Source: a virus. From it: a DNA stretch of 64,000 bases. The notes under the pieces are model-generated. The model was not told the origin of the DNA and ran no database searches. It saw nothing but the letters and a program-made list of their open reading frames with translations. The DNA is taken from the IMG/VR virus record IMGVR_UViG_3300035698_007036, positions 32,001-96,000 of that record, one strand, 5' to 3'. The position numbers and the translations under genes were made by a program. Shown piece by piece: positions 423 to 21,400 of the stretch. Numbering within the stretch: position 1 is the stretch's first letter; each line of letters begins with the position of its first letter.

Positions 423-475
423 GTTAGGAATCAGGATTAGGGTTTAAAAAAGAAGTGAGTATTTACGATACTTTT

Positions 476-482
476 GGAGGTG
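476..482 (+). promoter_or_regulatory. Shine-Dalgarno site (GGAGGTG) for the giant ORF
   Basis: GGAGGTG lies 6 nt before an in-frame TTG at 489. The track's TTG at 474 overlaps this site and is unlikely to be the true start. Confidence 0.7.
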
Positions 483-488
483 CTGGCT

Positions 489-3400
489 TTGGGAGAAACT
501 TATGATGTTAATTTAAAAACCACCGTTGATAGATCTAGTGGGGCGGGAAGTAAATCCGCAGGCATTTCCCCTAATGATGTTAAAGAATTCATCAAAGCAA
601 CAAAAGACAATGAGAAGGCTACAAAACGCTTACCTAAAGATATAGCGTTAGCCATAGCTCCAATTTTGAAAGGGGCTTTTAAACAGCAAGGTGTTAGTAA
701 GGATTCGTCTGGACAATCAATAGACGCTCTTGCTACTAAACTAGCCTCACAAATAGGTAGACAGCTCGCCAAACAGTTGGCTATTCATGCCAAAGCTCCA
801 GCAGTAACCCAAAAAGCCACAGCCACGTCTAACAAATCTGACAAAAATACTAAAGCCTTAAAAGACAGTATAGACAAACAGACTACCAAGATAGTTAGTG
901 CTATTTTGAAAGGCATTTCTGCGACGTCAGGCAAACAAAAATCAATTATATCTCCGGATTTTGGTAAACAGATAGCCACTGAAGTAGCCAATGCTGTAAG
1001 AAAAGTTATGGCTAGCAATGTTAGTCAGGCCAAAGAGTCAATTGACTCCGGTAAATTGGCCAACGTTATCTCTAAGCGGGTGTCTTCTGCTATAGACAAG
1101 ACCAGCCTGAAAAACACTGAGCCAGCTAAACTGATTAAGTTTTTAGCAGGCCAAGGACAAAACGGAAAAGACATTGTAAAAGTTTTAGAAGCTTTACAAA
1201 TGGAGATAAAAAGACAGAGCAAAGCCGGAAGTCTTCAAATGCCCAAAGAATTAGTTACAGGAATAAACCAGATAAAAACGGCTTTAGACAAAGTAGCTAA
1301 TCAAAAAACAACTGAACAAGATGGTAAGTCAGCTAAGGAGATAACCAAAGCAGCTGGCGACCTCGCTAAAGCTGTAGATAAGTTAACTTCTGTGGTAGGT
1401 GCTTTAGAGAGTACCGCTAAGAAAGCCAGTGCTGCCAATAGATCTGTTGACAAGATGGCAACTGGCTTAGCCAATTCAGGACAAACAGTGGGTAGGGTAG
1501 TTAAACCTATAAAGCAAAAGATAGAGGCTAAAATAGATAAGATAAATGATACCGAACTTAGAAGAAGTTTTAAAGCCCTTTTATCAGATGTAGAGAAAAC
1601 CATAGCTGCTAGCTACAAGTTAAAGATAACTCCTGAGATAGAAAAACTTATTAATCTTAAGAAAGAACTTGAAGCTAAAATTAGAAATATAGGAATTAGA
1701 TCTAAGGTGCCTGTTGAGGTAGAAGTAGATACCGTTAGTATGGACAAGCAACTAAAAAAGACGGAATCCAATGTTTTAAAGTTCAAGAAAAAAATAGAGA
1801 ATATAGAAATAGAAGGTCCTACAATTAACTTTAAAGCCGCCGCTTCTCCTAAAGGCGACTTCTCTGAGGTGTTAAAAAGAGTAGAGAAACGAATAGCGGA
1901 ATTTACTAAGCAAGAAGAAAAAGAGATAGTTGTTAAGATAGACCAGCAGAAGGGCTCTGTGAAAGGTTTCCAGGTCCAAGTAGAGAGTCTAAATAGGGTT
2001 TTGGATGAACTCAACAAAAAAGCTCAAGGCTCATCCCCTCTGAGTGGCTTTGAAGCTAATGATATAAATGCTGTAGCTAAGAAGATAGATGATCTGACTA
2101 CTAAAATGAGAAATGCAACGCTAGAATCAGCAAGATTGCAGGCTGAGTTAGCTGATATACAGTTAGACCCCATTACCAAAAGTGACGCTGAAAAAATAGT
2201 TAAGCCTTTAGTCGATGCGTTTAACCAAATAGAGGTCCTTTCTAAAAAGATAACCGGCAGTTTAGGTAAGGATGTACAGACTAGTTTTAAAGATGTAAAG
2301 ATCCGTTACAGTGAGGGTAATATAAAAGAAGCTCAGACTTCTGCTAAAGTGTTGAGTAAAGATCTCGGTGCCATAGGTCCGACGGCTCAGCAGGTTAAAT
2401 CTCTCGTAGATGATCTCGATAAGACTCTTGGGGCAGCGGTAAAGGGAGCATCAGAGCGGTATATTAAAGGTGCTAATTCTGTAGAGAAAGTAATGTATGT
2501 TCTTACAGATGCTATAATGGACTATGCTGGAAGTGTAAAATCAGCTCCTGATTTAAACAAGTCGGCCGATAGGCTGGTTAGAAGTATTGAAGATGCGGCA
2601 GATAAATTTGTAAGTTTAGGTAAGCAGGCTGCAGAGGCAATGAAGTATGTTGATAAATTTGAAATGCCACGTTATAATACAGGTGCTGGTAGATCTACTG
2701 ACCTAACAGCCCAAACAGCTAAACGCTTTCCTCCAATAGGTTCTGAAAAGATAAGAGCTAAAGAACTTATAAAATATACACAGACCACAATAAAACCACA
2801 TTATGAAGGTATACAGTCTGCTGGAACGCCAGGAATGGCTAGCGACAAGTCACAGTCAATGGTTGAACAAAGAGTAAGGGAGCTATCTAATTCCTTGGCA
2901 AAGCTTCAAGAAGATATGCTTAAAAATTTGGATAGAAACCTCGAGGGCACTTTTGCTAAATGGAAGGTAGTTAAGGATCCTGGACAGACTTCGAAAGACT
3001 ACGAAAAGATATTTAAGGTAACTGGTGGGGCCAACGCCAAAACTGCTGGAAAAGAATGGGCAGTTCAAATAGCCTCAGCCAAGAATCTTAGAGAGGCCAT
3101 AATAGATGCAAGTAAGGGCCTTAAGACATATAGTACTTCACTAGAACAGCAAGTTAGAAGAATGCCAGTTAAAAAACTTGTCAAATTATATGAGGACAGC
3201 CTTGTTGATTTGGAAGTTTTGGCCACACAAGGTAAGCCTGATGTTAGAAGGCAAAAAGTTGCCTCTTGGATACGCTCTACACCTAATGTGGAGTCTAAAG
3301 ATTGGAACCTGGACGATGATGAGAAGACTAAATTTAAGGAGATAAGAAAAACAGTATCAAGAAAGACTGGGCTTAAGGGTTCCGATATTTTAAAGGAAAT

Positions 3401-6400
3401 AGAAAAAAGCCTAAAGGGTTATGGTGATGACTCATTAGCTGAGCTTTACAAAAAGACATATGCTAGATCAGAAGCTCAAAGATCTATACAGGAGGGTTAT
3501 AAAAAGAAAGGTGCTGGTGGTGTAACTGTAACAGAGCCATTAGTACGTACTTTGGCCGTTCCGGCAGCTAAAATGGATATACAGGGCAATATAACTTTTG
3601 AGACCGCTTCTGGTGCTAAAAGAGGTGTGGCTGAATTTGCTACCTTTAGGTCTGGATTTGAAAAGATGTATGAAAAGCTTCAGTCAAAAGGTGGATCAGG
3701 TTACGATATAGCTGGAGAGTACGATAAACAAGTACGTTCTTTTGCTGTAAAAGTTCCAGCAGGTATGAACAGTCAAGCCAAAGAAACGGCTAAGAAGATG
3801 ATACTGGATCTAGCTTCCAAGGGAGGACCAGAAGATTTTTCCTTTATTATAGAGCAGTATAACGATGCTATAGTAAATAAGGGGGTTAAGCTCAGAAAAT
3901 CTAATGTCATAACGAGTGATGAGGAACTAACCAAGTTTGTTACTGAAAAGTCTTCCAGCATTAATAATAGCTTTAAGGACAACCCCATGGCTTTGGCAAA
4001 GAACATAGAAAACGTAATAGATGACTATGATAGGGCCGGAGTGACCGCACTAGACTTCGTAAGATCCATGGACAGTATAGATTTTGAGAATGTGTACGAC
4101 GTATATGATAAAGTTCTAAACGGACTTACTGTCGGTTTACAGCCATTGGAGAACTTAGCCAAGAATCCTAATTATTCAAGTAATATCAGGGACTACGAAA
4201 AAGCAATACGTCAGGTAGAGCAGTTAATGCCCGTTGTTGAACCAGGCCGTCCACGTAGAGGTGCCTACCAGGCAGGAGTAACTCATGTAACTTCAAGAAC
4301 TTCTGATGTATTTAGTGGAGAATCCCGTCTTACCCCAGAAGATCAAAAGAAACATATTACGGATATTAATTTAAGAGCCAAAGAGATGATGGAAGAAGCT
4401 AAAACACTTAGAAAATTAAGTGAAAAGATGCCTGAAACTTTTAAAGAGAGAAAGGGTCAGCCTCCATCTAGAATTAAAACTCTGACTTCATTAGGTCTTC
4501 CAGAATCTACCATTTCTGCTATTCTAGAAAGAGGTAAAGCAAGGGGCGGAGATACTAATGACTTCTCAAAAGGTACAGATTACTTAAAAGCTTTGGGTGG
4601 TACAACCGTTCAAATGCAGACCCAGCCCATACATGCTATGGCCCCTTTTGGGATGCAGGCAGGGCATAGAGGTAGAGCAGGTATGGGTTCTATAACCCGC
4701 AGTATGTCATTTGATAGAGAGATAAATAAGACTATATCTGACTTAAAGGGCACCCCTGTAAAGGGTACAGTTACTGATTTTCCAGCTGTGAGAACTACCG
4801 AAGAGCAGGAGTTAATAGCCGGAGGAAGATATGGTAGAAGTGGTTATGGTTTTAATGCGGCTACAGAATTTAAATCAGTAGCCGGTACTCATGAGGATAC
4901 TATTCAGGTAGCAGGTAAGATTGCTGATGCTTTAACTAGTAGAATAAAGACTGTTATGTTTCCAGCTTCTGGCGGACGCTTGGGCAGTCCAGGAGCTGCT
5001 GGTGAAAGGGAATCTTACGTAGGGGATATAACCCCTAAAATGATAAGCGACACTTCCTCAGAAATAGTTAAAGTTTTGGGAATGTCAAAAAACTATGAGG
5101 GTAGGGCTGATCAAGCTTTAATAGAAGAAGTTAATAAAACAGTTAGTGTAGTAAGAGGTGAGAATGTAGAAGTGCAGGCAGCAAAGATTGCTGAAGTATT
5201 TTTAAATCACTTTGGAAGAAAATTTATGACACGGTCTGGTACCAAAGGTGTTGGTATAACACCTACAAATCTAAATGAGAAGGATGCTAAATTTCAACTT
5301 AAAGTCGGTAAGAAAAAAGGCCTTGGTGTTTATGAAGATCCAAAGTCTATGGGTGAATTAGCGTCAGTAATAATGCTTAAAAATAGAAAAGAACTTGAAA
5401 GTAGTTTTTTCAACAAAGTTGGTGCTGGTCAAGGTCCCAAAGACAGTAAGGAAATTAGATCCGAATTCGAGAAAACCAGAAAAGCTATTTTAGATTCTGG
5501 TAATAAATTTATGATAGAGGCCTTAAGAAACAAGGACCTTGGGGTAGCCACTGAGGGCGAGGCTAACACTAACCAAGCCTTATTTACTACGTTTAAAGAC
5601 ATGATGGCTAGCCCAGCTATTAATCAGCAGTTTACTGGTAATAGTGTTGCTGATATATCTAAACTTAAAGACTTTTATATGAAGACTGGTGGAGACAAAG
5701 CAAGTTTAACTAAAATGAAACCGATAGAGGTTAGAATAAATTCCTCAAGTGTTGGTAGAAGAGGGTTACAGTCTGAAGTACTGGAAGCCGTCTTAGGCAA
5801 CGTAGTAGGAAAAGCCAAGCACGGATCCACAGTAATTGAATCAGATATACCTAATGAACAATACCAGAACTTACTGACCGGTGGTAAAGATCAAAGTGGC
5901 CAATACAAATCCGGCACGTTAAGTAAATATTCCAAAGCCTTGGGCTATAAAAAAGCTCTTGATAGTACCAAAGACCTTGAATCTGAAATATCTGACATAT
6001 ACGGAGTCGATGGTTTAGGCAGGAAAGTTTCTGAGGAGGCCTCTACTTTAAGTGAGTTAGCGTCGTCTGGAGCAGGTTCTAAGGTTTTAGGAGAACAACG
6101 AGCAGCCGTTGAGAAGGCTAAAACAGCCTTAGACGAGGCCGAAGCTAAAGTAGCCGAGGCTATGAACCTAGAAGAGACTTCTAACTTCTATTCCAATGTT
6201 ATTGACGAGTTTGGTAAGAAGCGAAGAGGCCTCATTTCTACACAACATTTTATTCAGATAGCTGAAGAACCAGGTGAGCAGCAAGATTGGAAAGCTGGAC
6301 AAGTCAAAGATCTTAAGAAAGGAATAAAGCTAAACCAGTTAGCTTACTCCGCATACGGTACTATTTTTGGCGAGCAATCAGCGGTAATTGATGAGATAAG

Positions 6401-9400
6401 GGAAAACCTTACTGATGCGTCTCAACAAAATTGGGAATATATAAAAGCGTTACAGTACATGAGCAACGATCAATCCGATGCCACTGACAAATATAAAGCA
6501 AGTTTAGAAAACGCACTCAAGAGTACTGGCAAGCAGGTAAAGTTAGGTGATCTTAAATCTTTTACCAGGTCTACAGGTACACTTACAGGAAAAAGAGACG
6601 ATCCTTCAAGCCTTAAAAATACTATAATGGATCATGAGAAATATTCTACACCTTTCTTAGTAGAGATACCAAAAACTAATTCACCAATAGATAAATTAGG
6701 TAAAGAGTTTGAAGATTTTTATGTACCAGGTCCACAAGCCAGAAGTGTTTATCCAGAGAATTTAGTAGCAGGCGAATATGGTATTGATAAAGTATCTAGA
6801 AGGATACAGCATGTAATAAACTCAGCTAAACAAGTAGAAGATTTTTCTAAAGACCCTATGGGGTCTATAGATCAAAATGAATTTATAAATATGGTAAGGC
6901 AGAACTTGTTCGAGCTTGAGCAACAGGCTATGGGATTTGAAAGAACTATCAATCCTCAAAATGCCCAGTTCAACATAGGTGAACTACAGGGTATGTTTAG
7001 TAAGCTAAGCACACTCCTATCAAATGATGCCGCCATACCAGTTTCTAAAGGCTTTAAACCAGAAGCGTTTAAAAATGTAAAGATGACTGAACAAGAAACA
7101 ATGCAACGTTTTATTGTTGAAAGAATGAAAGAAGTTGATCGAGGAGATACTTACAACTCTGGTATAAATAAAGGACAAATAAAGACCATACAGGGGGCTT
7201 ATGTAGAGTCCATAAAAAGGCTAGTTGATATGTACGTAGGAGTTTCTCCAGAGGTTAAGCAAGGATATTACAAAGCCGAAGACGTTAAGATGTTAATAGC
7301 TAACGATGATCTAACATCTCCATTAATTGAAGCTATGATGAAAGGTGAACCAGAAGGCATTGTAGAAGGCCTTGGGACACAAGCTAAGTACTTTAAATCA
7401 AATAATGTAGGCCAATTAAAAGAAAGAGTAGACAAATATCTTAATTGGCATGGCGAAAAGGTTAATGCTTATCCGGCTATAAATAGACGTCTGGGCGATC
7501 AAGTTGAACCTAAAAAGAAAAAAGAGGAAATGAAAGTCATTGCTGGCACCTTAGGAATAGGGGATAAGCTTAAGAAGGAGACCCTTCTTAAGAGAGCCGG
7601 TACATTAGAGAAAGCTAAAGTAGACTATCAAAATGAATTAGCTCAAATGACTTTAGGTAAAAAGGGTGCCGTACAAGAGACTTTGTTTACCAGGAGAATT
7701 CCTGCGGCCTATGGTAAGGCTGTAGCCGCAACTGTTGATAGAACAGAAGAAATGAAAACGTTTCTAGTGGAGATGGATTCTATTTATGATGAATTGTCAA
7801 CAGCTACTCGACTCAATGATGTTGTAACTCCCAATAAAGCTACTGAACTTGCCAAGACTATAGATTCTGCTCAGAAAGAGCTTGAAGACATAAGAGTACG
7901 ACATGTTGAAAGGGTAGATAAAGCAAGACAAGGTTCTAATTTACCTGTTCTAAAACAAAACGAGCTTATGATACCTGAAGCTTCTGCTAGGTTGTTGCCT
8001 GCACAGTTCCCCAAACCATATAAATTTGGAAAAATGGGATCAGTTACTGAAGACAAGGGAACATCAGAAACTGGTAAGAACTTTGATGAGTTAATCAAGT
8101 ATAGAAATAGATTAGAGAGCTATATAGCTAAGAATCCAGGTTCTGATATAGTAAAAGGAATGAATGAATTTATGGAGAAAGAACTAATTCCTTACGTGGA
8201 GAGTGTTCGTTTTCCATTCACTGGTATATCATCAGTACTTCCTTCCAAAGGACGTGTAACAAAGAAGGGTGATTTTAGAGGTATAGGGGATCAGACTGTA
8301 ATAGTACCAGGTGCTCCGGAAATGTCACCAGAAGATTTTAGTAATTTTCAAAAGCAAATAGAAAAAATACAAACAGTAAGAGGATCATTGTCCAAAACTA
8401 GAGAAGGCCTCTTGTCTAAACCTGGTGGTTCCCCTCAGTCTCCAGAAGTCAAAAGTTTAACCACCACTATTAACAGGTTAGATAAGGCTATAGATGACGT
8501 CATTCCTAAATACTTAGCCCATCAACAGAAGCTTGATTTCGACGGTGACTCTCTATTCGTACATACAGCAAAGCTGAAGGAAGCCAGAGCAGAAATTAAG
8601 CAACATTATGAGACTGTAATACAAACACCTAGTAAAGACGGTATGCCTGCCAGTTTTCTAGCATCCCACAGCGGAAAATTTGCTTCTGACGCTATCGAGC
8701 CCTTTGTGCAAAATGCTGTTTTAGCCGATATGAAGATGGGTTTTGATAAGAAGCAAGGAGGCAAAGGTGAAGAATTCCTTAGAACTCCAACTTTTTCTGA
8801 AGACCTTAGCTACATATCTACTGAGAAACAATTAGACTTTCTTAAAACCCGTATGGGTGACTACGGTGACATAATAAGAGAAGCCCTCGATGCTGTACAG
8901 GCTCCAGAAGGTTTGTCCACTGAGATTTTAAAATCAGTAAGAGAAATTTCCGGAAAAGACGGTGTTACGTCTGGTGATGTACTTACAGCTATACAGGGGA
9001 TTACATCTAATAAGCCAGCATCAGCAGATGCTTATGTTAAAGCCGGTTTAGAGAAACGTACAGGAGAAGAAAAGTATAAGGATTTCATTAGTGCTCAAAC
9101 TTATAAAATACATACAGGACCTGAAGTAGAGTCCTTAACTAGAATGCAGAGAGTTATAGAGACATATGCCGGATTTGGCAAAGAGGGCCTTATAGGTAAG
9201 GGCTCTGAGTCTAGGGCACGCCCTGAATTTGAGGAACGCTGGCCATCAGATATGCCTGGTTTATTTGGACCAAGGGGTGGAGTACAAGAATTTAATACCA
9301 TGTTAAATGAAATGTCTCGTTTTGGTCAGCAGGCTGGTATGGACGTTAAGCACGCTGGTGCCAACCCAGTAATACAAGAGATAGTGAGTCTTTTGACAAA

Positions 9401-12400
9401 GGGTGGTAAAGAGGCTGACAAACCTTACGGCGGTGTTGATGAGCTGTTAGATAAAGTTTCTTCAGGTGATAAAACCTTAGGTGGTCTACAAGACATACAA
9501 GATGCTATAAATGATGCGGTTGATAAAAGAGTAGGTGTGTTAAGCACAAAACAGCTAAGGGGCCAACTTTCTAAGCTTGTGACACAGCGTGGTGATGACC
9601 CTTCAGCCATAGGTGAGATGGATAGGCCTGAGCTTATAAGTACAGTTAAGAAGCAAGTAGGCTTAGAACCTTTTTTCAAGGATATGGCAGACATAATTTA
9701 CAAAGAGGCCCTGTCTGGTATACAGCAACAGTTGGCTAATATGACCCCTGAAGCCCATGATAAGACCACAACAGGTTTCAAAGGCACAGACGAGCAATTT
9801 GCCAAAGACACTCTTGCCCAAGAGATGCGTGGTGGTGGTATAAACATTGCTAAACATATTACTAAAGCCCTTCATCCTTTATATACATATAGAACTAGCG
9901 GTGCCAATTTAGGATCAGAACAGCAAAAAGCTGTACAAAGAGTTGGCGGCGTTAATAGTCCTGACTTACAACCTGGTAAGTTAAGTGAAGATAGATTTAA
10001 TAGTATGAGAAAGAAAGCCATCCAATCCCAGTCTGTAACTGCTAATTTAAGCAGGGATTTACAGACTGCTGTCCAATATGCAGAGAGGGGAACTTATTCT
10101 GAGTTGGTATATAGTGGTCTAGAGTCTCTACATAAACAATCCAAAGATGTAAAAAAGGCTGCCTCGACTTTTGATGATTATAAACCTACCCTAGGTGCTG
10201 TAGGAGATGCTGGGGCTGCTGCCGAGCTAGCTAAGTACGGAACTTTGATGAATGACTTTACGGATGCCCAGTTAACGTCATCTAGCGTTCTGACCGGTGA
10301 AATGGCTGAAAGTATAAAGGGTATAATAACTACAGGACCTACGGATATAACCAAAAGTAAAGATTTAAATAATATGAGAGACGAGATAGAGAGGCTCTCG
10401 AAGTTAGCAGGAGTTCCAAGACTAAGTGATGTTTCTGAAAATGAAATAGATAATTTAACTGGAATATTTGGAGAATTTGTAGATAAAAATGCATCGCCTG
10501 ACATAAAAAACGATGAGGCACAAAAGACAAAGCTTGTAAATAATCTTAAAGAAAAGACTAAAGCACTTCACCAGTTACAAAAAGTTATAGATGCTTTAAG
10601 AGTTAGGGCTGTAGAATCAGAAGCTATCTTAAATTTGATACCTTCTAATGTAGACATTGGTGGGGTAATGGTAGGGGCTAAGTCTTTTGATAGACCAGGT
10701 CCGGAGACCATAAAGGACGAGGGTGGGAATGTTGTAATAAAAAAAGCATATGAAAGAGGAATCATAGGAACAAGTGCTCCAATAGATACTGATATGTTAG
10801 ACCAGGGACAATTTAGATCATCAACAAGTTCTCCTCAATTCTATAGTAATCGCGGCCCAGGTACACCAGGTGGTGGAGTCCCAGGTGAGTGTGTTCGTGT
10901 AACCAATTGTGACGGTCCTCTAGACGTCAGGGTGGTTGATATAGCTTCAGGAGTCAATATAGGGACTTTGGCGTCTGCCTCAGAAAGAGTTGGGGCAACT
11001 CTGCAAGATAAGATGGCGTCTAATAGAATAGCCACTGAACAATTTGTACAGGATTTGAGAAAAAACGCCTCCGACTTAAGTGGAGGAAAAGACGAACCTT
11101 GGACTCACGACAAATATGTAGAGGAAACTCAAGGTAGATATACAACCCAACAAGCCTACAGGGCTAGTGGTCTGGCTGGCGGAACTTTAGAAGATAAATC
11201 TGAATCCCTTTCAGCACAGCAGGCTCAGGTAATAAAAATAATTAAAGAGATGACAGGTGTACATCAGGCGAGAGGTATTAGTGAGATAAATGATACTCCT
11301 AATGAGCCAACGGGCGGTATAGCTGACGCTAAGTATGCTGCAAGAACTGAACTTGGTACACTACTACATTTAAAAGAGCAGAAACAGTTAGTTAAAGATT
11401 ATGGAGATAGGGCAGTAATAGAGAAAACTCTTAAAGTCAATCCGAATACTTCTGACAGTGGTATTAAAGAGGGTCTGACAGGCTCTATGCTTTCTAACTA
11501 TATTTCAGGGCATGTTGACGCCATACTTAAGAAAGAGGGTGCTGGCGGTGGGATAGGTGAAATAGATAAGTTTTCTGATATTGAGTCTGTAATAGATTTT
11601 AAAACCTCTGGCCAGAATTTTATGGACGCTTTAAATTCAGCCGGTTTTAAAGATACTCCTGAGTATACACCAGAAAAAATGAAGGCTTTATCTGATATAC
11701 CTAATGGTGAATTCTATGTAGAAAAATTAGAGAATGCTCGTCATCAGGTTAACGTCTATCTTGAAGGATTACGTCAGATGCTAGGCGGAACTGTTGAAGA
11801 TTTTGAGAATGTAACCGGTGAACTATCGTTTATTAATAACATGGATTCAGGAGACAGAATTAAAGTCAAGTTCAAATTTGACGAGCAGGCCTTCGAAAAT
11901 GATATGGCTGCTGTTAGAAAAGCAAGAGAATTGATAAGTGAGTATTTAGCTAATGCTGACAAAACATTAACCCCATCACAGCTACATACCAAGCCTGAAG
12001 ACATAAAATATCAGGGTGCGTTAAGATCAGCAGTTGGTTCTGGAAAAGTAGGCAAGTTTGCTTTTAAGGGGGCAGCATCTCCAGAATATTTAAGAAATGC
12101 TGAAGAAGAGAACATGGTTAGACAGAAATCAGGCTTCTCTATGGTTGGCGATGCAGATTTAAACAGAAATATAAGAAATGCCCAGTCGTTTATCACTGGT
12201 GATTTAAAACCAAAAGCCCACGGAGCTGCTATGGAAGCCTCCACTATGGCAGAGAGAGCCCGTGAGGAGACTAGAAAATCTGGTATAGACCAGACTAGAA
12301 GTGTTCGTATGCAAGCCGACAAGTACGGTGATCAAGGAGCTTTAGGGAATATAGATGATGAATTTTCCCGTGCCCAAAGAGGCCCTACTAATCAAAGAGG

Positions 12401-15400
12401 AGTTTCAGCCGTTTTCGTTGCCCTTAAAGCTATGCATGAACAAGCCATATTAGCTCAACAAGACGAAGGAATAGATTTTGAGATGGACGTCTCTAAATTG
12501 CCAGAGTCACTTGGTGGCCTTATAGATAAGGTGTCGCAAGTGGGCCCAGATTTTGGTGAGTATGTCTCAAAGGTCAACGAGCTTATAGATACTGGTGAAT
12601 TAAAACAATATGAGATAAACAAGTCTTATAAAATATATAGAATAGCTATGGGAAATTTCTATATTAAAAGAGCTGAAGCTGCTAAGAAGCAGATGGAAGA
12701 GCTTTACACTCAAGAAAAGAACACTGGGGAGCCAGCAGGTTCAAAGCAAGCTTATGATAGGTATAGAGCTATAGTAGAGGGTCTTCAGAAAAGGATCCAA
12801 GGTACTATAGGACAAAGAACAGACATTTATACTAAAGATAGAAGGTACTTTAGTCCTCAGTTAGCTAAAGAAGCTGGGACATACCTTACTCCAAAAGACA
12901 TTATGGATAAGTCTTCAGGACCTTTGGGCAGTAATGACAAACTTAAAGGTATGTTTGAAAGCATAATATTTGACATAGATAAGAAAGGTAGTAAGGGGAT
13001 AGATAAGGGAAGAAATATGGCCCGTTCCCCTGTAGAAAAAGTAAGAGAAGCCTTCAAAATGATGAGTAAACCTAAAGACAAAGAAGGTAAGGAATTAGAT
13101 ATAGATCTAGTCTCTCTTTTAAGAGACGGGGAAAGAATGAAAAGAGTAGGATCGGATCTTAAAGAAGATTGGGATTTTGCTGGGGTAGTAGATAATATAT
13201 CTAGGCTCAGAGCAGCCCTACAGATGTTTGTAAAGAACAACATAAGTGAAGATTTTAAGATTAATGAGCAACAGAATTTAAATGAGGTCATAAAACTTCT
13301 TAAGACTTTAGAAAACAATTATGTGAAGTTTGGTAAGAGTATAGGTAAGAGTAAAAAAGAATGGGGCGATATGGGGCTGGTCAAGGTACCGCCAATTCTT
13401 GCCCCTGTAGATCAAGAGTCTATGCATGAGAGAAATCTACAGCAAACTCGTAAATATTTTAAAAGAACAGAAGGTGAAGGTGGTGCTAAAATAGGCGAGC
13501 GTTTTACTTATCCAGTTAAAGTACTTGGCGAAGCTGGTCAGCAAATAAAAAATCAACAAATACATTTTTATAAATACGGTGAAGCTATAGATTATGCTGG
13601 TGATAAGCTTGGTCTATTTAAAGAAAAACAAGAAGATGTAATGAAGTTTATACAAGGTGGCAATAGGACTATGGGCTCTGCCATTATGCGTGCTGTTAGA
13701 TGGGGTGCAGCTTCTTCTATAGTGTATGGCGGATGGCAGAAGGTAATGGACTCCATAGATATGATGTCCGACGTTGAGACAGAGATAGCACAATTGAGAA
13801 TGGTGATGAGTCCACTTGAAACTGATTTTGATGCTATGGGCAAGTCCGCGTTTGGTTTCGCTAAACAATATGGAGTGCCTGTTAAAAGTGTTCTAAAATC
13901 TATGAAGGTGTTCGCTCAACAGGGTTTGAGTCAATCAGATGTTATTGAAAGAACACAGACTTCTACATTAGCATCAAATGTTACTACTCTTGAGGCTAAG
14001 GATGCTACTGAAGCTTTAACTGCCACTATGAAAGTCTTTAGAAATGAGATAGGCTCTTCTGCTCATGCCCTTGACGCTTGGAGTGAGGTTGAAGCTAAAC
14101 ACGCTATTACTGCTGGTGATATGGCTGATGCTATTAAGAAATCAGCATCGGCTGGTAAGAACGCTGGTTTTACGTTTGATCAGTTAAATGGTATTATCGC
14201 TTCTATAGGTTCTACCACAAGACAGACTGGTAAAGAGGTAGGCACCTCCCTAAGATTTATATTCAGACGTCTAGCCTCTGAAAAAGGACCTAAAGAGTTA
14301 GCAAAATTAGGCATCCCAGTACTTGAAAATTCTGGAGAATTGAGGAAAGGTTTTGACATACTAGATGATCTATCTTCTCAATGGGACGGGTTAACCAGAG
14401 CTCAGAAAATGAATGTTGCTCAAGCAGTCGGTGGTACTAGACAGTATAACCAACTACTTGTTTTAATGGATAATTGGGACGAAGCTCTGTCAGCTATAGA
14501 GGATAGTACTAACTCTAAGGGGTCGGCTGAGAGAAGAAACCTTGAGTTAATGAAGACTTACAGTAAGCAGGTTGAACAGGTTAAAGCAGCAGCATCCGAA
14601 GCAGGTGTTTCTTTGGGCAAATTAGTATTACCTACATTTAAAGCCGGGCTTACTGGCCTCAAGGGTTTTTTAGAATTTGTTAACAATATACCATCAGGTA
14701 TAAAATTGACCACCGCTGCTTTATCTGGCCTAATAATTTACTTTGCCAAGGGTGCTGATGCTATACAAGGGTTTCTTGAATACTTTAGAGGCGGTAAATC
14801 CATTATATCAGACTTCGGACGCTCCCTTTCAGACGAATGGAAGTTAACTCAATCTGAGGTTTTTGGTTCTGGGGAATTTGCCAGCTATGACGCCACTCTA
14901 AATGTAAAGAAGGTCAAAGTAAAAGATTTAATAGACTTTAAATCCATGGGCAATATCGATCCTGAGTCTACAAAGGATTTACTGGGGTCTAACATGGGAG
15001 ACTTTCATTCCTCAGTAGGTAAGTCTCTGTTCCTTTTGAAATCAGTTGCTACGGAATACAACAAGTGGTTAGCTGAAAGCTTTAAAGATACCAGTGATAC
15101 TGCTGATAAATATTTAGGAAAACCATTACAAAGAGCCGGACAAGTTGCTGATAAAGCCGGTCGTTCCCTGATCTCATCAGGACTTAAGTCCATTGATAAG
15201 GGTGGTACATTTGGTGCAATAACTGGTGCTGCTACAGGGGCATTGGGTGCAGGAGCTTCTGCTATAGGCAAGTCGTCCGAATTTGCTGGCGAGTTAGAAC
15301 AGACAATAACAAAGAAATTTGGTAGGCCCGCTGGTAGAATGTTCAATGAGATGGCCCAAAATTCTAAGGGGTTTTTAAGTGTAATAACGCCGTTAGCTGT

Positions 15401-18400
15401 CTCTTTGACAGCTGCCGGTGGTGCTGCTTACGTAATGTATAAACACTATAAAAATCTAGCAATGTCAGCACAAGATTATGAGAAGTCTATTTACGGTATA
15501 AGAAGGGCTAATGAGAGTGAATTAAAGACCGTAAAAAGTAGGATCAATGAGTATTCTAAACTTGAGAGGTCTATAGAGAAAGCATCACAGGTTACCGCTC
15601 CAGGAGTTAAAAAGAAGAGACAAGGGTTAGAAACTTATGAAAGTCCTCTAACAACTATGGCTGGAGTAATTTCTGATGTTAGGGATTTCTCTAATAGGTT
15701 AGGAGATACCAATACAGAATTAGTAGCAGGATATGATAAATTTGGTAATGCTGTAATAAGAACTTCTAACAATTTAAAAGAATATCTTAAAGTCCTAGAA
15801 TCCACTGCCCGTAAGGACATGGCCAAGGTGGAGATAGATGTAGCAGCCAGATTTGTCACCGATCTTACGAAGACTGGCGGCACTGAAAAATGGAAAGAGG
15901 AACTTAAAGCCCTTGCTTCTGAAATTCCAGTAATTGGTGAAATGGTGGCAAGTGGTATAAGTGTAGGTCCAGCTAAAGCATTAGAAACCATAACTGGTAA
16001 ACTGAATGACCTTATAGTACTTAAGAATAAATTTCCTATGTCCAATGCTTTCGATAAGGACATTAAGAAATACCAAGAGCAATTGTCTAAAGTAAGATCC
16101 TCCTTTAGTGCTACTTACGAAGACTTTAAAAGAGTTCTTGCTGGGATATCTACGGAAGGCATGTCTCGTGATGATGTATCTAAAATATTCAGTTCCCCTG
16201 AAATTCGCAAGGGTTACGAGCTAATGATAGACATTGAACCGAGATTCCAATTAAACGCTGTCAAGGGTAAAATAAAACCAGAAGATATAATAGGTTCTGA
16301 TGTACTAAGTAGAACTCTTAACTTCGATTTTGATGTAACTAAGGAACTTACTAAGGCCCGTCTAGAATCATCCTCTGTAATGCAGAGAGAGGGTAAAGCG
16401 TTGTCCGGGGACATATTACTCTTTATGGACGATGTAGCTAGTAAATACAATATGGCAGGAAGCCAAGCACAGATTTCACTTAAGGAAACAACCGATGGGG
16501 TTTTTGAATGGTTTGTTACATACTTCAATACTAAAACATTACGTGTAGAAGAACGCCCATTTGAAGGTGCCATGATGGATATGGTTGAAAACATTTTTCC
16601 TAAAAATAAAATTGAAGATGAACTTAGTGAAAGAATAGATTCTCTTAATGAATTTATGGCAGGGGCGTCTGCTGGATTAAGAGGTGTTAATCCAAAAGAT
16701 TTTAAGAAGGATTTTAATTTAGGTGAGCGTTTCTTCAGTGAGGTTCCTACCACTACACTAATCCAATCCGACAAAGGCTTTACGCCAGGCGAAGGGTTTG
16801 GAGTCTCAGATTTCCAAAAAGATTGGCAGAAGTCTGCACAGGACTATTTCTTTACTCCAATGAAAGATTATAAAAATCAAGTAGAAGAACTTCAGAAGCT
16901 GAAATTAAGCGGCCTCGAAGAGGCTGGGTCAGTTAGCTTATCTAAAGAGCTATATGAAAATCTAACCAGTTTACAAAATGTTCTAAAGAACAATCAAGTA
17001 GTTTTACAGTACAGAGCTGTCTTTGCTGACCTTACTAAAACTATGGAGGCAGGGACACGTGCTCTTAAAGAAGAATTAGCAGTAGAGAAAAGTCGTCAGC
17101 AGATAAGTAAAGATACAGCCGGTTATATGAAAGGTATATCATCAGGCCTTGACAATATGGATTTGGGGTCTCAGAAGTATTCAGATTTATCCGATAAACA
17201 ACGTGCTTTAAGAAGTTCAGGTACTTATAGGGATTTGGCCTCCAGAGCTAGTGAGATCAATATAGAAAGACAGCAAACCGAAAAGGGTGTGTACGATACT
17301 GATCGTGCTTTAGTGGCGTTAGATAGTATCTCAGACGTTTCTAAAGGCTTTGGTGCGTCTATGACTGCCGAGGAGATGAAAAAATATGTCGATATTATAG
17401 CCAAGACAGATGATGCTGGGGCACAGTCTATTGCTATAGAAACCAGTAAGGTTGTAGACAATACCGCTGCTACGGTGGAGAGATTAGATAAGCTTATAGA
17501 AAATCAAGGTGGCGGAAGATCTACAGAAGACACCATAAAGAAAGCAATACCTTTCTTTACAGCTTCTTTTGATGATAATGACAACATTGCAAATACCATG
17601 GAAAATTTAGCCGAAATGCGAGATAGTGCAGCTGCTAAGGGTAATACAGCAGATGTTGTGTCCGCTAATAGGGCTTTAGATGTAGTGACAAAAGAATTAG
17701 TAGACAAAGTAGGATACGAAAAAGCTGGAAAAACTGTTAAAGGTGGAATACTTCCCTCGATATGGGATCCTATAAAGCAATTTAAACCAGAGGAATTTTC
17801 ACAGAGAGCTTTTGGTGGCATGTCCTTCGATGATTTTTCTACTCAAATTAAATCAGGTATGACAGAAGACCAAGCCAAGGTGTTTGATAATAGTAAAGCA
17901 GTTAAAGAGTTAGTATCTTTACAGGCTACTGCTGGAACAGAACCACTTATAGACTCTAAGAATTGGATTAAAACTACTGCTGCTCTAGGTGTTGGAGCTC
18001 AAGGATTTAAGAGCTACGCCACAAAAGAGTTAGAACAACTCAGAACACAGAAAACTGAGACTGTTAATGCCATCGAGACTAGATCTGCTGAAGGTAAAGA
18101 CGTGGCCCAATTTGAAGAAAAACTTACAACGCTAAACGATAAGATAGGTGGAGCTGAAAAACGAGAAGATTACTCTAATTTAGTAAAGAATACTGCTATT
18201 GTTTCTGCTGCCATAATGGAGCTCTCTAAAGCTACTGGTAGTACAGAAGGTACCATACAGACCCTAGGAGCTAGTGCAGTTGCTGCTGCTGTTGCCATGA
18301 AATCTTTATCAGCAATTACTGGTACTGATATGCCAGCGGAAATTAAAGCATCCGCTGATAAAATGGCAACAGCTGGAAAAGGTTTTATAGATAAAAACAG

Positions 18401-21400
18401 TGCCACACCAGTAGAAAAAGTTGAGTTCATGGTCAATAGTAAGAAGTTTATGGATGCTTTTAAGAAAGAAATGGAAACTCAAGGCTTCAACGTCAACGCA
18501 TCCCAATTTCCAGGATTTGCCGATGGCGGTGTTATGACCGGTAGTGGTATGGTCACAGGCCCTGGAGGCCCTACTGACGATAGAGTTCCTTATGTCAGAG
18601 CAGGTAAACATGTAGGAAATCTTTCGCCTAAAGAGTTTGTAATAAAAGAGGCATCAGCCAGAGGTAAGTATGCGGAGCTAAATCATCTTAATAAAACTGG
18701 CGAGTTTCCTGATAAGAAAAATAGTATGTGGGATAATATAAAGGAACGTCCCATTAGTTCAGCATTACTAGGCCTTAGCGGCTTGTCCGGTATGGCCGGT
18801 AATATGCTTAAGAATCCGGCATTATTGTTAGCCGGTATGGGAGGCATTGCCTCAGGTACTGCCGCCGCCGCTCTAGGTTACGCCGAAGGCGGTTCTCTTG
18901 ATGATGCCTTGTTTGACACTCAGTTTAAATTACGTGCTTTAAAAAAGAGTGTTCCTCATAGACTTAAGGGTTTAGGTGTTGATCCTTTAAACAGAGGCAA
19001 GGCCACTATGAAGAGTTTGGCTCTAGATGACAAATTATCTAATGCCTTATTTGACGCTCAGTCCAAAGCAAGAGGTCTTAAGTCCAGTATGCCTCATAGA
19101 TTAAAAGGGACAGGGCGTGAAGCTTTAGGCAGAAGTAAGTCAGCCATAGAGACTTTTAGACGTGGTTCTGATAAAATCCCGAACACTATGTTTGATGCCC
19201 AGTTCAAAGCAAGAGGCCTTAAGTCCAGTATACCGCACAAACTGAAAGGCATGGGTCTTGATGCCATGGCCAAGGCAGGCCAGTTTGGGGACAAAATCTC
19301 GGATGCCATGTTTGATGCCCAGTTCAAAGCAAGAGGCCTTAAGTCCAGTATACCGCACAAACTGAAAGGCATGGGTCTTGATGCCATGGCCAAGGCAGGC
19401 CAGTTTGGGGACAAAATCTCGGATACCATGTTTGATGCCCAGTTCAAAGCAAGAGGCCTTAAGTCCAGTATACCTTACGGTCTAAAAGGATTAGGTCGTG
19501 ATGCCTTAGGTCGAGGCAAATCAGCCGTAGAAGCCCTTAAATATGGGCCAACAGGTGAGAAGATTTCCGGGGCCTTGTTCGACGCCCGGTCAAAGGCTAG
19601 AGGTCTTAGTAAAGCCATGCCTCATAAGTTCAAAGGTCTAGGTGTAGACGCTCTTAAAGGTATAGCTAGCAAAGGGGCTGGTAAATTAGCTAAAGGATTC
19701 GGCATTAAAGCCGGATTGAAGTTGGCAGCTTCAGTAGGTTCTAAGTTTATTCCAGGCTTGAATGTGCTATCTTGGGGGGCTACTATATATGACGTAGTAA
19801 AAATGATGTCTAAAGCTAAGCCAGCGGTAGCTGCGGCAAAAGGATTGTCTCTCGGGGGATCTCCTGATAGTATAATGGCTATGGTCAGCCCCGGAGAGTG
19901 GATAGTTCCGGCTGACAAGGTTAGAGGTAATTTGTCCAAGTTAAAGCAATTAAATAAGACAGGTATGTTACCAGGATATGCTGACGGGGGCCTTGTCGGA
20001 GGTAATACTTCACCTGATGCCCCATCGTCATCTACCGAGCCTTCTACTATTAAAGTAGATTTAAGCGATAGTAGTTTAAAAGTCTTAAGAACAGCTGTAG
20101 GTGCTGGAGCCGCTGCTACAGGTGCCGGTTATTTAGCTAGTAAATCCGAAGCAAAAACTAGATTGGCTACCGCATCAAAAGAAGCGGAAGAGCAGTCAAG
20201 AGTGTTTGCTAAAGTAATAGAGGATAATAGTGAAGCGGCCCAAGGGGTAATAGATGGCATGAGAACTACCTCTGTTGAATCTAACAGGATAATTAACCCT
20301 GTTCCAACAGAAGAGCGATCTCGCGTTCTAGACACCGGGGCTGAGAAAGAAAAAGTAGCCTCTGATATGAAAAAGATCAGAGATCGTATAGTTAAAGAGC
20401 ATGAAAGACTTAATGATGAGATGGCTGAAATAGCCAAAGAAGCTTCAAAAATAGAAATAGCAGAACAATTTAAAAGAGAGAAAGAAAATTTAGACAGGAC
20501 TTTAAAAGAGATAGACCTTACTAGTGGTATAAGAGCAAATTTAGAGAAAGCTACCTATCAACAAGACCCCACTAGCTTTTTTTCACCACCTAAAAAATCG
20601 GATCTATTAAGCGGTTTTTACAGGCCTCAAACTACAGACTTTGGTGTAACGAGAGAGTCTGAGATGACTCCGGAACAATCTATGGTTTATAGAGAGATAT
20701 CATTGTTTCCCGGTAAGATGCGATCATTTTTTGAGGCCATTTCAGTAGGTGATAGCTCTATACAGAAAAAAATAAGGGCGTACGCTGGAGTGTCTGCCGG
20801 AGATGCTTTTAAGAAGCTTGATGATCTAAAAAATAAGAGACAACAAGTAAGTGATGTATCGACTGATGTTCAGAAGAGAAAAGCAGAACTGGAATCTAGG
20901 AAATCAGACGGACTTTCTAGTGCCGAGTCTGAAGAACTTGACAAGTTAAATGATTCTGCCGAAGAGTTACAAGATACTTTTACGGATCTTACTGGTGAAA
21001 TAGGTACTTTACAGGCCACTATAAAGAAAGCCATAACTACAGAAACCATAAGACTGGCAAATAGATCGACTGCCAGAGAGGATTTGGCCAGAGAAGGAAA
21101 ATTTGCTGATCGTAAATATGGGAGAACTGGGGCTGTTACAAAAGCAACTACAGGTTTTCCTGGAGAAGTATCAACTTCCCAGAGCTACAAAGAGTTGTCC
21201 GTTATGCAGCAGGTTTATTTAGACATGAGCAACAAGCAAAAGAAGGGCTATGATGCTTTCTATAGAGGTCTTGAAGAGATAGGTCATATGGAGTCCAATT
21301 TAGCTAATGCTCAAGGAGAAAAAGTAAAAGCCATAGAAGAAGGGGATACGGATGCTGTAGCTAAATACGGTGCACAAATATCAGACTTGAAAAATAAAAT

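Follow-up and report, generated by a model that had tools for sequence, protein, structure and literature searches.

The stretch of DNA analysed here, which we call the window, is 64,000 nucleotides long and corresponds to bases 32001-96000 of the 119,536-base virus record IMGVR_UViG_3300035698_007036, whose completeness is estimated at 41%. It holds a giant open reading frame (ORF) that encodes a tail tape measure protein and, ahead of the tape-measure core in the same polypeptide, a single-chain RNA polymerase (RNAP) of the two-barrel type found in cells (Table 1). A sequence-only reading had recognised the RNAP from its motifs and had described it as an active, streamlined enzyme in which beta and beta' are fused. 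Taking homologue alignments, predicted structures and the genomic surroundings together, we find it almost beyond doubt that the module truly is homologous to two-barrel RNAPs and keeps their catalytic set intact.

Table 1. Features of the giant ORF in window coordinates. Fractions give the rows of the 81-row homologue alignment that keep a residue.
Feature	Nucleotides	Residues	Strand	Remarks
Giant ORF	474..24620	8,048 aa	+	Polymerase-carrying tape measure protein; TTG at 474, true start perhaps a few codons downstream
N-terminal K/A/S/E-rich region	474..2870	1-~800	+	Poorly conserved to about residue 700 (BLASTP coverage, 26 homologues); no Pfam or PHROG family
Beta-like module	2871..6404	~800-1977	+	Homologous to an entire second-largest subunit, the stretch N-terminal of the barrel included; model m1966d4df0be9
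E-D pair	4893..4898	E1474-D1475	+	Counterpart of E. coli RpoB E813-D814; 81/81
Barrel lysines	5220..5249	K1583 (nt 5220) ... K1591-G (nt 5244)	+	Eight apart, then G-V; correspond to RpoB K1065/K1073; 81/81
Arginine, beta side	5760..5762	R1763	+	Counterpart of RpoB R1106; 81/81; within predicted interface with the beta'-like half
Beta'-like module	6468..10073	~1999-3200	+	C-terminal limit from conservation only; model extends to residue 2992
Lid-like segment, V-P-x-P-x-x-R ... R-R-I-x-x-V-I-N	6723..6821	2084-2116	+	P2085 81/81, R2090 80/81, R2109 77/81
Variable, mostly helical insertion	6801..7553	~2110-2360	+	Between lid-like and switch-2-like segments, within the clamp-like domain; low conservation, gaps; homologue-model helices 589-735
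Switch-2-like segment, G-K-K-G ... R-R-I ... G-K-A-V	7650..7739	2393-2422	+	G2395 81/81, K2396 71/81, K2415 77/81
R-F-P	8208..8216	R2579-F-P	+	Counterpart of RpoC R425-A-P; R and P 81/81; within predicted interface
DFDGD metal-binding loop	8535..8549	2688-2692	+	Corresponds to RpoC D460/D462/D464; three Asp and Gly 81/81; F 66/81, Y 14
Bridge-helix-like helix pair	9066..9167	~2865-2898	+	Homologue-model helices 1087-1102 and 1105-1121; K2878 and G2882 81/81
Trigger-loop-like tip (Q2953, M2956, K2959, H2960, G2962)	9306..9359	2945-2962	+	Spacing as in RpoC Q929/M932/H936/G938; helix-loop-helix 1136-1179 in homologue model
TP901-type tape-measure core, PF10145	13845..14435	4458-4654	+	E 2.3e-26; within conserved tape-measure block, residues ~4000-5900

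The catalytic residues carry this identification. Every motif listed in the sequence-only reading lies in frame, and where it had been placed, within the ORF. Stretches of the window were set without gaps beside the translations of E. coli rpoB and rpoC. The trigger-loop stretch runs ungapped against RpoC 922-944, with H2960 (nucleotide 9351) inside a Q-x-x-M-x-x-x-H-x-G pattern; residues 2388-2424, likewise ungapped against RpoC 326-362, have G-K-x-G, a basic pair and G-[RK]-[SA]-V in common with it, the GKKG of the window standing at residues 2395-2398. Judged from its sequence, the lid-like segment is plausibly the equivalent of RpoC 240-285, in an alignment that requires gaps of one or two residues. 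For the bridge-helix stretch, no residue-for-residue alignment with RpoC was obtained.

Conservation of these residues was followed in an alignment of 81 rows, consisting of the window and 80 relatives, from which 29 rows at least 92% identical to a retained row had been removed. E1474, D1475, K1583, K1591, R1763, R2579, D2688, D2690, G2691, D2692, H2697 and K2959 are present in all 81 rows, and Q2953, M2956 and H2960 are kept in 80, 69 and 71 of them, H2960 giving way to Leu in seven rows and to Lys in three. Homologues lacking the DFDGD loop or the lysine pair would have spoken strongly against the assignment, and the alignment contains none: the three Asp, the Gly and both Lys stand in 81 of 81 rows. 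The most divergent long members all keep DxDGD and mostly keep K-x7-KG. The catalytic residues likewise recur in 37 of 37 unique IMG/VR loci and in 27 of 27 proteins, with overall identity to the window at 24-37%. Strict retention at such divergence is the pattern of selection on catalysis, and from these residues we infer that the polymerase module would be catalytically active. A chance match had been judged very unlikely, and simulation agrees: when the residues of the ORF were shuffled 2,000 times, D[FY]DGD arose in 27 shuffles, the trigger-loop pattern in eight and K-x7-KG[VI] in 1,111, and all three together in none.

Two absences noted in the sequence-only reading were also borne out. 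There is no Cys-based zinc site, because the polymerase module has no cysteine: none occurs in the window module, the polymerase regions of the 81 rows have a median of zero and a maximum of one, and no alignment column there holds more than one. The whole 8,048-residue ORF contains two cysteines (residues 3473 and 3479), both outside the polymerase, and its long relatives have between zero and two each. As for an alpha-like subunit, PF01000 and PF01193 are absent at E <= 1 across the 119.5-kb record (41% complete), and both were detected in 14 of 14 control genomes. The loss of zinc sites, together with the apparent absence of a flap-sized insert and the loss of the trigger-loop His in 10 of 81 members, could be taken to mean that an RNAP-derived fold survives in the tail as bulk, plug or scaffold and no longer catalyses anything. 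Yet the metal-binding and substrate-contacting residues tested are invariant in the same 81 rows at 24-37% overall identity to the window, and we find such a dead relic scarcely credible.

The module is wider than was first proposed. The limits 4635-9360 given in the sequence-only reading did not survive, as conservation and the fold of residues 800-1999 extend the polymerase to residues ~800-3200 (nucleotides ~2871-10073). A word-indexed search returned 26 homologues of the giant ORF, of 4,530-7,716 residues and 25-38% identity, and BLASTP coverage defines two blocks common to them and the window protein, one at residues ~800-3200 (variable at ~2110-2360) and one at ~4000-5900. Mapping of a homologue model onto the window places the beta/beta' junction at residues ~1977-1999; in that model the variable stretch at 2110-2360 is therefore an insertion in the clamp-like region and not a linker joining the beta-like and beta'-like halves. 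From the E-D pair to the first barrel lysine there are 108 residues here and 251 in E. coli RpoB, so that a flap-sized insert is either missing or replaced by a helical insert of low confidence; the insert at the position of the sandwich-barrel hybrid motif (SBHM) is predicted to be helical, with a per-residue confidence (predicted local distance difference test, pLDDT) below 50. The segment before the lid-like element is also short (~85 residues versus ~245 in RpoC), and the variable helical insertion of ~250 residues precedes switch 2. The word streamlined thus suits the enzyme in its lack of zinc sites, of an alpha partner and, apparently, of a flap-sized insert, but not in its size, as the module has ~2,400 residues and not 1,575.

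Two AlphaFold models were compared with known structures by VIA, an aligner independent of Foldseek. Model 2 (m1966d4df0be9), of window residues 800-1999, has a mean pLDDT of 78.0 and a predicted template modelling score (pTM) of 0.75. Its top nine rows are all second-largest RNAP subunits (Z 12.4-15.2), and the next row, at Z 9.8, is an unrelated helical hairpin. Seven of the nine are near end-to-end matches: Xanthomonas beta 15.2, plastid beta 15.2, African swine fever virus (ASFV) 14.7, Pol I 14.5, Pol IV and Pol III 13.6 and vaccinia 12.4. The best row, Xanthomonas beta 6j9e_C, aligns 443 residues at a root-mean-square deviation (rmsd) of 5.9, model residues 1-1182 against chain residues 31-1338. 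The two phage subunits among the nine are confined to the C-terminal half of the model, from residue 586 onward: AR9 7s00_C aligns over 198 residues with Z 14.1, and phiKZ 7ogp_C over 233 with Z 13.0. Ahead of the beta barrel, some 640 residues can be aligned with the N-terminal half of cellular beta, and the end-to-end match argues that the beta-like part is a whole beta homologue starting near residue 800.

Model 1 (mdb0d553a09d4) represents the homologue L040, 35% identical to the window, over 1,196 residues that contain both barrels and the trigger-loop motif (pLDDT 78.2, pTM 0.69). That beta and beta' are fused in one chain, as had been claimed, is borne out in this model: residues 4-465 match second-largest subunits (ASFV RPB2, Z 13.2, 224 aligned; Pol I A135, Z 12.1; Xanthomonas beta, Z 11.3), and residues 486-1191 match largest subunits from their residue ~10-26. 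The latter include E. coli beta' 4yln_D (Z 12.3, rmsd 4.6, 319 aligned, chain residues 21-1234), human Pol I A (Z 12.1, 346 aligned), Drosophila Rpb1 (11.9, 364), Sulfolobus A' (11.6, 317) and M. tuberculosis beta' (10.4, 340). A cellular-like clamp is matched as well, the archaeal clamp domain 3qqc_A aligning with model residues 466-742, equivalent to window residues 1978-2400 (Z 8.5, 150 aligned); with the switch-2 and trigger-loop stretches ungapped against RpoC, this upholds the earlier description of a cellular-like clamp and trigger loop. In a second structure comparison, 704 of 985 chains reached a Z of at least 8 and the top 50 of the 985 were all RNAP subunits. Unrelated helical bundles also appear in the VIA list of model 1 (Z 9-11, over residues ~750-1055), because a long helical hairpin is inserted in the beta' barrel. 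The ESM Atlas gave no usable match for window residues 2000-3200.

At the level of sequence, the links to canonical RNAPs are weak for the window's own protein. Comparison of family profiles with the E. coli proteins by hhalign returned the K...KG and DFDGD stretches and nothing else: window residues 1580-1594 align with RpoB 1062-1076 over 15 columns (E 0.18, not significant alone), and the DFDGD stretch aligns with RpoC 457-481 (E 0.0067). PF00623, the Rpb1 active-site domain, is found in 15 of 32 members at E <= 10, with a best value of 2.1e-4, and the next family in four of 32.

If the module is one enzyme, its two barrels should meet. QDE-1 aligns as one chain over model 1 residues 14-1186 (Z 11.4, rmsd 5.8, 365 aligned), which argues that the barrels are placed as in a known single-chain enzyme. 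Complex prediction with our own alignment as input, for window residues 1431-1986 against 2549-2992, gave a score of 0.73, the best of three controls scoring 0.00; the benchmark mark for this score is reached by 58 of 80 solved complexes and by two of 110 mismatched pairs. Runs agreed in at least 61% of contacts, with a partner pLDDT of at least 52. Confidently predicted interface stretches are residues 1757-1770 (the R1763 loop; chain 1 331-344), 2576-2588 (the R2579 loop; chain 2 1150-1162) and 2695-2711 (the strand after DFDGD). The double-psi barrels are predicted to face each other, so that the E-D pair, the two lysines and the arginine of the beta side would meet the arginine and the DFDGD loop of the beta' side. 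Because beta-beta' complexes are among those already solved, the pass may reflect likeness to them, and that likeness is the very point at issue.

The QDE-1 match raises the question of template. A two-barrel polymerase could copy RNA templates, as QDE-1 and the RNA-dependent RNA polymerases (RDRs) do, or could make DNA in the manner of archaeal PolD. Like QDE-1, maize RDR2 aligns over both barrels (Z 9.4). Most top rows are nevertheless subunits of DNA-dependent RNAPs, and so is every one of the first 50 among the 985 chains; in addition, the whole N-terminal half of beta is present, the switch-2 and trigger-loop stretches run ungapped against RpoC, and the trigger-loop residues are identically spaced. 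We regard another specificity as very improbable.

The remainder of the giant ORF is a tape measure. PF10145 occurs in the window protein and in all 26 homologues, and 13 tape-measure families of PHROGs match the ORF, with E-values down to 1.2e-73. The large terminase, the portal and the major head protein are encoded upstream. Downstream, at 40061-62701, there is a run of very large proteins (1,761, 2,321, 873, 618, 975 and 533 residues) with F5/8 type C, Laminin_G_3, Big_1 and DUF2341 domains, also described as Ig-like and lectin; they are likely to be baseplate, fibre or adhesin proteins. Given these neighbours on both sides, the giant ORF occupies the tape-measure slot of a tailed-phage structural module. 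PHROGs returned no family for 10 ORFs of the window other than the giant one, and none for the large proteins of 40061-62701, and where sheath or tube genes would separate a contractile from a non-contractile tail, upstream of the giant ORF, no informative Pfam or PHROG match was obtained. Between the two conserved blocks, window 11150-11950 (residues ~3560-3826) has no Pfam family and residues 3401-4000 have no PDB sequence match.

Related records also encode a compact counterpart of the polymerase. Five large records of this kind, when searched with the family profile, gave weak secondary hits that fall in separate ORFs. Standalone single-chain beta-beta' ORFs of 1,085-1,178 residues were found at L140:7000-10536, L141:7334-10591 and G005:C1:44262-47537, and the protein of 1,178 residues shows Rpb2_6 (E 1.1e-4) followed by Rpb1_2 (E 3e-4) as sub-threshold Pfam matches. 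Against the family profile, hhalign aligns the standalone protein with a probability of 96.3% (E 1.8e-9) over 174 columns that span the beta/beta' junction and the lid-like segment. This match argues for a free-standing, compact paralogue of the tape-measure polymerase, fused in the same way, which is a candidate for a non-virion polymerase. Three of the five related records have it, among them the 100%-complete G005 (268.8 kb); the other two are G006 and G008. A similar compact standalone relative of 1,000 residues, P0121, has nine cysteines, in contrast to none in the tape-measure polymerase. The standalone RNAP gene adjoins an SF2 (superfamily 2) helicase gene interrupted by an intein/LAGLIDADG element and a phiEco32-like COOH-NH2 ligase gene.

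A tape measure that carries an RNAP has one studied precedent. In the Thermus phage P23-45, the tape measure gp96 (5,002 residues) has an N-terminal two-barrel RNAP with DFDGD at 779-783 and a minimal active core at 327-1124 (PMC10770324). This protein is full-length in virions, is active in vitro and is bound to the pre-early genes, where ChIP-seq (chromatin immunoprecipitation sequencing) and start-site mapping showed promoter-directed transcription (PMC10770324). By analogy with gp96, the giant protein of the window would be packed in the tail and ejected at infection. Its polymerase part, free of cysteine and zinc, would fold or refold at or in the host cytoplasm and would then transcribe the first-entering ('pre-early') genes with no host enzyme. 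In complete relatives one likely downstream player would be the standalone beta-beta' paralogue of ~1,100 residues, in the role of a non-virion polymerase. That the protein resides in the virion and is injected, that promoters are used and that two polymerases form a cascade is what we infer from the P23-45 system. To the view that the module is active, is carried in the particle together with the tape measure and starts transcription on the entering DNA, we assign a probability of about 0.7-0.75, because of the P23-45 precedent, the fusion in 26 of 26 near-length homologues and the retention of the catalytic residues in 81 of 81 rows at ~30% overall identity.

Some family members depart from the fused form. 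P0028 (4,004 residues) ends at the point matching window residue 4264, just ahead of the tape-measure core, and at L014, L022 and L074 (two contigs, L014 and L074 lying on one) the module is spread over two or three ORFs, with breaks that include one between the beta-like and beta'-like parts. These split forms could be real or could be assembly errors. If real, they would suit a polymerase part that is cut from the tape measure at maturation, either to become a separate head or tail ejection protein or to stay unpackaged and act late. However, polymerase and PF10145 share one ORF in 26 of 26 near-length homologues, 63 of 120 retrieved proteins have at least 4,400 residues, gp96 is full-length in virions (PMC10770324), and the split cases have the assembly explanation just given. 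Cleavage therefore seems to us decidedly unlikely.

An active polymerase might also serve chiefly a mechanical or priming role, pulling a long genome from the capsid by transcribing it, or making primers. The fusion to a protein thought to form the DNA conduit would suit such a role, as would the length of the relatives' genomes (189-269 kb), and the authors of the P23-45 work propose that transcription is concomitant with DNA translocation (PMC10770324). This role is nonetheless compatible with gene expression, and gp96 shows promoter-directed pre-early transcription (PMC10770324); as the chief role we hold it to be unlikely.

Several observations count against delivery of an active polymerase, or against the assignments on which it depends. 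The window's own row matches no RNAP Pfam family at E <= 10, its first 3,000 residues match no Pfam family at E <= 0.1 and no PHROG, and phmmer with residues 1388-3009 against PDB sequences gave no match at E <= 10. The family profile reached Rpc1/Rpb1 among PDB sequences only at E 1.3-1.8, behind coiled-coil proteins in the top rows (E 0.0016-0.045), and the hhalign probabilities against RpoB and RpoC were 0.3% and 5.7%. Foldseek E-values against the PDB are weak for both models, none being <= 0.001: the best for model 1 is 0.011, in a top 50 composed of nearly all RNAP subunits, mostly largest, and the best for model 2 is 0.041, to E. coli RpoB. The insert in the beta barrel has a pLDDT below 50 (residues 68-100, 116-129 and 139-147 of model 1; 682-718, 731-748 and 764-771 of model 2), and the beta'-like half of the window is supported through the model of a 35%-identical homologue and the complex prediction, in which its pLDDT is 52-55. 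Ten of the 81 members have another residue in place of the trigger-loop His. No standalone paralogue could be found in the window's record (41% complete), in G004 (89%) or in G007 (72%). Finally, with ~2,400 residues and a clamp-like domain, as opposed to the flat gp96, the module would have to travel unfolded or extended.

This last point can also be turned around. The gp96 structure is flat and clamp-less, and its authors propose that the flat shape aids passage through the tail (PMC10770324). We tentatively suggest, as a possibility that we think more probably wrong than right, that the window polymerase belongs to a further lineage of tail-delivered RNAPs, independent of the first and much larger. 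Such an enzyme would be a complete, clamped, cell-type beta-beta' that has shed cysteine and zinc so that ~2,400 residues can thread unfolded through a very long tail and refold; it would initiate by itself, possibly by means of the variable helical insertion, and would then hand over to the compact paralogue. The insertion sits at what we take to be the place where bacterial beta' carries its sigma-binding clamp helices. If this were true, passage through a tail would not demand the clamp-less shape of gp96, and the two fused paralogues could together represent a deep branch of cell-type RNAPs borne by viruses.

The family was recovered from several sources. A DNA scan of IMG/VR gave 48 loci (52 of 413 candidate stretches confirmed), a metagenome scan gave 79 loci from the best 80 of 128 confirmed stretches (164 candidates), and three contigs binned with metagenome-assembled genomes (MAGs) carry it (three of 23 candidates). 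Both barrels lie in one frame in 109 of the 135 matching ORFs of the fetched loci. When all 1.84 billion representatives were searched by profile HMMER with the beta-like alignment, 109 proteins came up at E <= 0.001, of which 104 reach E <= 1e-10 and 93 reach E <= 1e-30. No cellular beta is among the 109, which bears out the suggestion that this may be a distinct lineage. A tblastn search with residues 1388-3009 found no match in 50,697 phage records. The MAG bins L128, L129 and L130 (Gammaproteobacteria, Fermentibacteria and Woesearchaeota) were considered as indicators of the host and rejected: the contigs, of 16-25 kb, lie in bins of unrelated phyla and are most likely phage DNA binned by accident.

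Other features of the giant ORF and its relatives may be recorded here. Its C-terminal third has five copies, of ~40-47 residues, of a unit with F-D-A-x-x-K-A-R-G-L (window 19050-19600), and near its C-terminus (23937-24230) there are ten V-D-T-type units of nine residues, nine of them evenly spaced. A module with G-P-G-G-P-T-D-D ... S-P-G-E-Y-V occurs two or three times (18558/22344). Four of the 26 homologues carry an RNase_T-type exonuclease domain (PF00929). In BFVD, the best match of the two-barrel model, and the sole row at E <= 0.001, is piece 1 of A0A8S5SD80, 'Minor tail protein, Siphoviridae sp. ctnpt50', from an uncultured siphovirus, at E 8.3e-4 with 10% identity; this structural match hints at further, unrelated fusions of tail proteins with RNAPs.

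Among known systems, cellular beta and beta' are one standard of comparison. The module resembles them in its near full-length beta match (seven of the top nine rows), in beta'-side rows that run from the N-terminus through the trigger loop, and in the same catalytic residues in the same order, with equal spacing at switch 2 and the trigger-loop tip. The order of beta before beta' is also that of the E. coli rpoB-rpoC genes, and natural rpoBC gene fusions occur in some bacteria. Unlike the cellular enzymes, it shows only 12-18% identity to the matched chains and does not reach Pfam thresholds, lacks cysteines and zinc sites, comes with no alpha gene that we could find, and is embedded in a tape measure. 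The flap (SBHM) insert in the beta barrel is described by Iyer et al. as common to cellular, killer-plasmid and jumbo-phage beta (PMC7824862).

Like the RNAPs of phiKZ and AR9, the module is phage-encoded, of the cell-type two-barrel kind and without alpha, and the beta subunits of those phages match the C-terminal half of model 2. Those phages are described as having virion and non-virion RNAP sets, with enzymes split into four or five polypeptides (PMC7824862). Here, by contrast, beta and beta' lie in one uninterrupted ORF, fused to the tape measure.

Single-chain enzymes, namely QDE-1 and the RDRs, YonO of a Bacillus prophage and gp66 of phi14:2, a crAss-like phage, also have both barrels in one polypeptide, beta-like then beta'-like. 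They share only a small N-terminal motif (PMC10770324), whereas in the window protein ~640 residues ahead of the beta barrel match the N-terminal half of cellular beta. P74-26 gp62, which is the non-virion RNAP solved for the P23-45 group, is a lower match to model 1 (Z 8.5, 290 aligned). The suggestion that the module is closer to cellular RNAPs than to YonO or crAss types finds support in the beta-like part, where the top nine rows of model 2 are all multisubunit second-largest subunits; for the two-barrel model the margin is small, QDE-1 reaching Z 11.4 against 12-13. gp96, phi14:2 gp66 and YonO are not among the matches listed for either model, which is no evidence of difference. The closest sequence relative outside the tape-measure family is the compact standalone RNAP (L140, L141), which has the same one-chain order but is about half the size and is not fused to a virion protein.

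The nearest analogue in design is gp96 of P23-45 and its Thermus relatives P74-26, G20c and TSP4. In both cases a two-barrel DFDGD RNAP lies upstream of the tape-measure part in one polypeptide, the barrels follow in the order beta-like then beta'-like, and a second, standalone RNAP resembles a paralogue of the first, here in three of five related records. In P23-45, gp96 clusters with the non-virion RNAP gp64, in a clade of phage and plasmid enzymes and QDE-1 (PMC10770324). No sequence similarity between the window protein and gp96 could be detected (hhalign probability 0.4%; best BLASTP E 0.14 when the whole proteins were compared). The module of the window, at ~2,400 residues, is three times larger and starts ~800 residues into the protein; it has the full N-terminal half of beta and a predicted clamp-like domain, and its best structural matches are subunits of the multisubunit type. 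The phages also differ in host and group, those found here being uncultured, with records of 189-269 kb. Full-text literature searches turned up a fusion of tape measure and RNAP only in Chaban et al. 2024 (PMC10770324), whose supplementary alignments of 23 RNAP families and survey of genomes with two RNAPs may include the present family.

The tape-measure-fused RNAP is thus a kind known from P23-45 gp96, and the present family, with no sequence similarity to gp96 that could be detected, has a different build. The one link between tape measure and RNAP studied experimentally so far comes from a narrow group of Thermus phages, and the same arrangement is here widespread in uncultured large phages, in an enzyme that, in contrast to gp96, is nearly cell-sized, predicted to bear a clamp, and free of cysteine. 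It lends itself as a natural test case for the storage of a large multidomain enzyme in a tail and its transfer through the tube and, if it works, represents a minimal cell-type beta-beta' core that dispenses with alpha, omega, zinc and sigma. The pairing of a probable virion RNAP with a candidate non-virion paralogue parallels P23-45 and bears on the early evolution of two-barrel polymerases.

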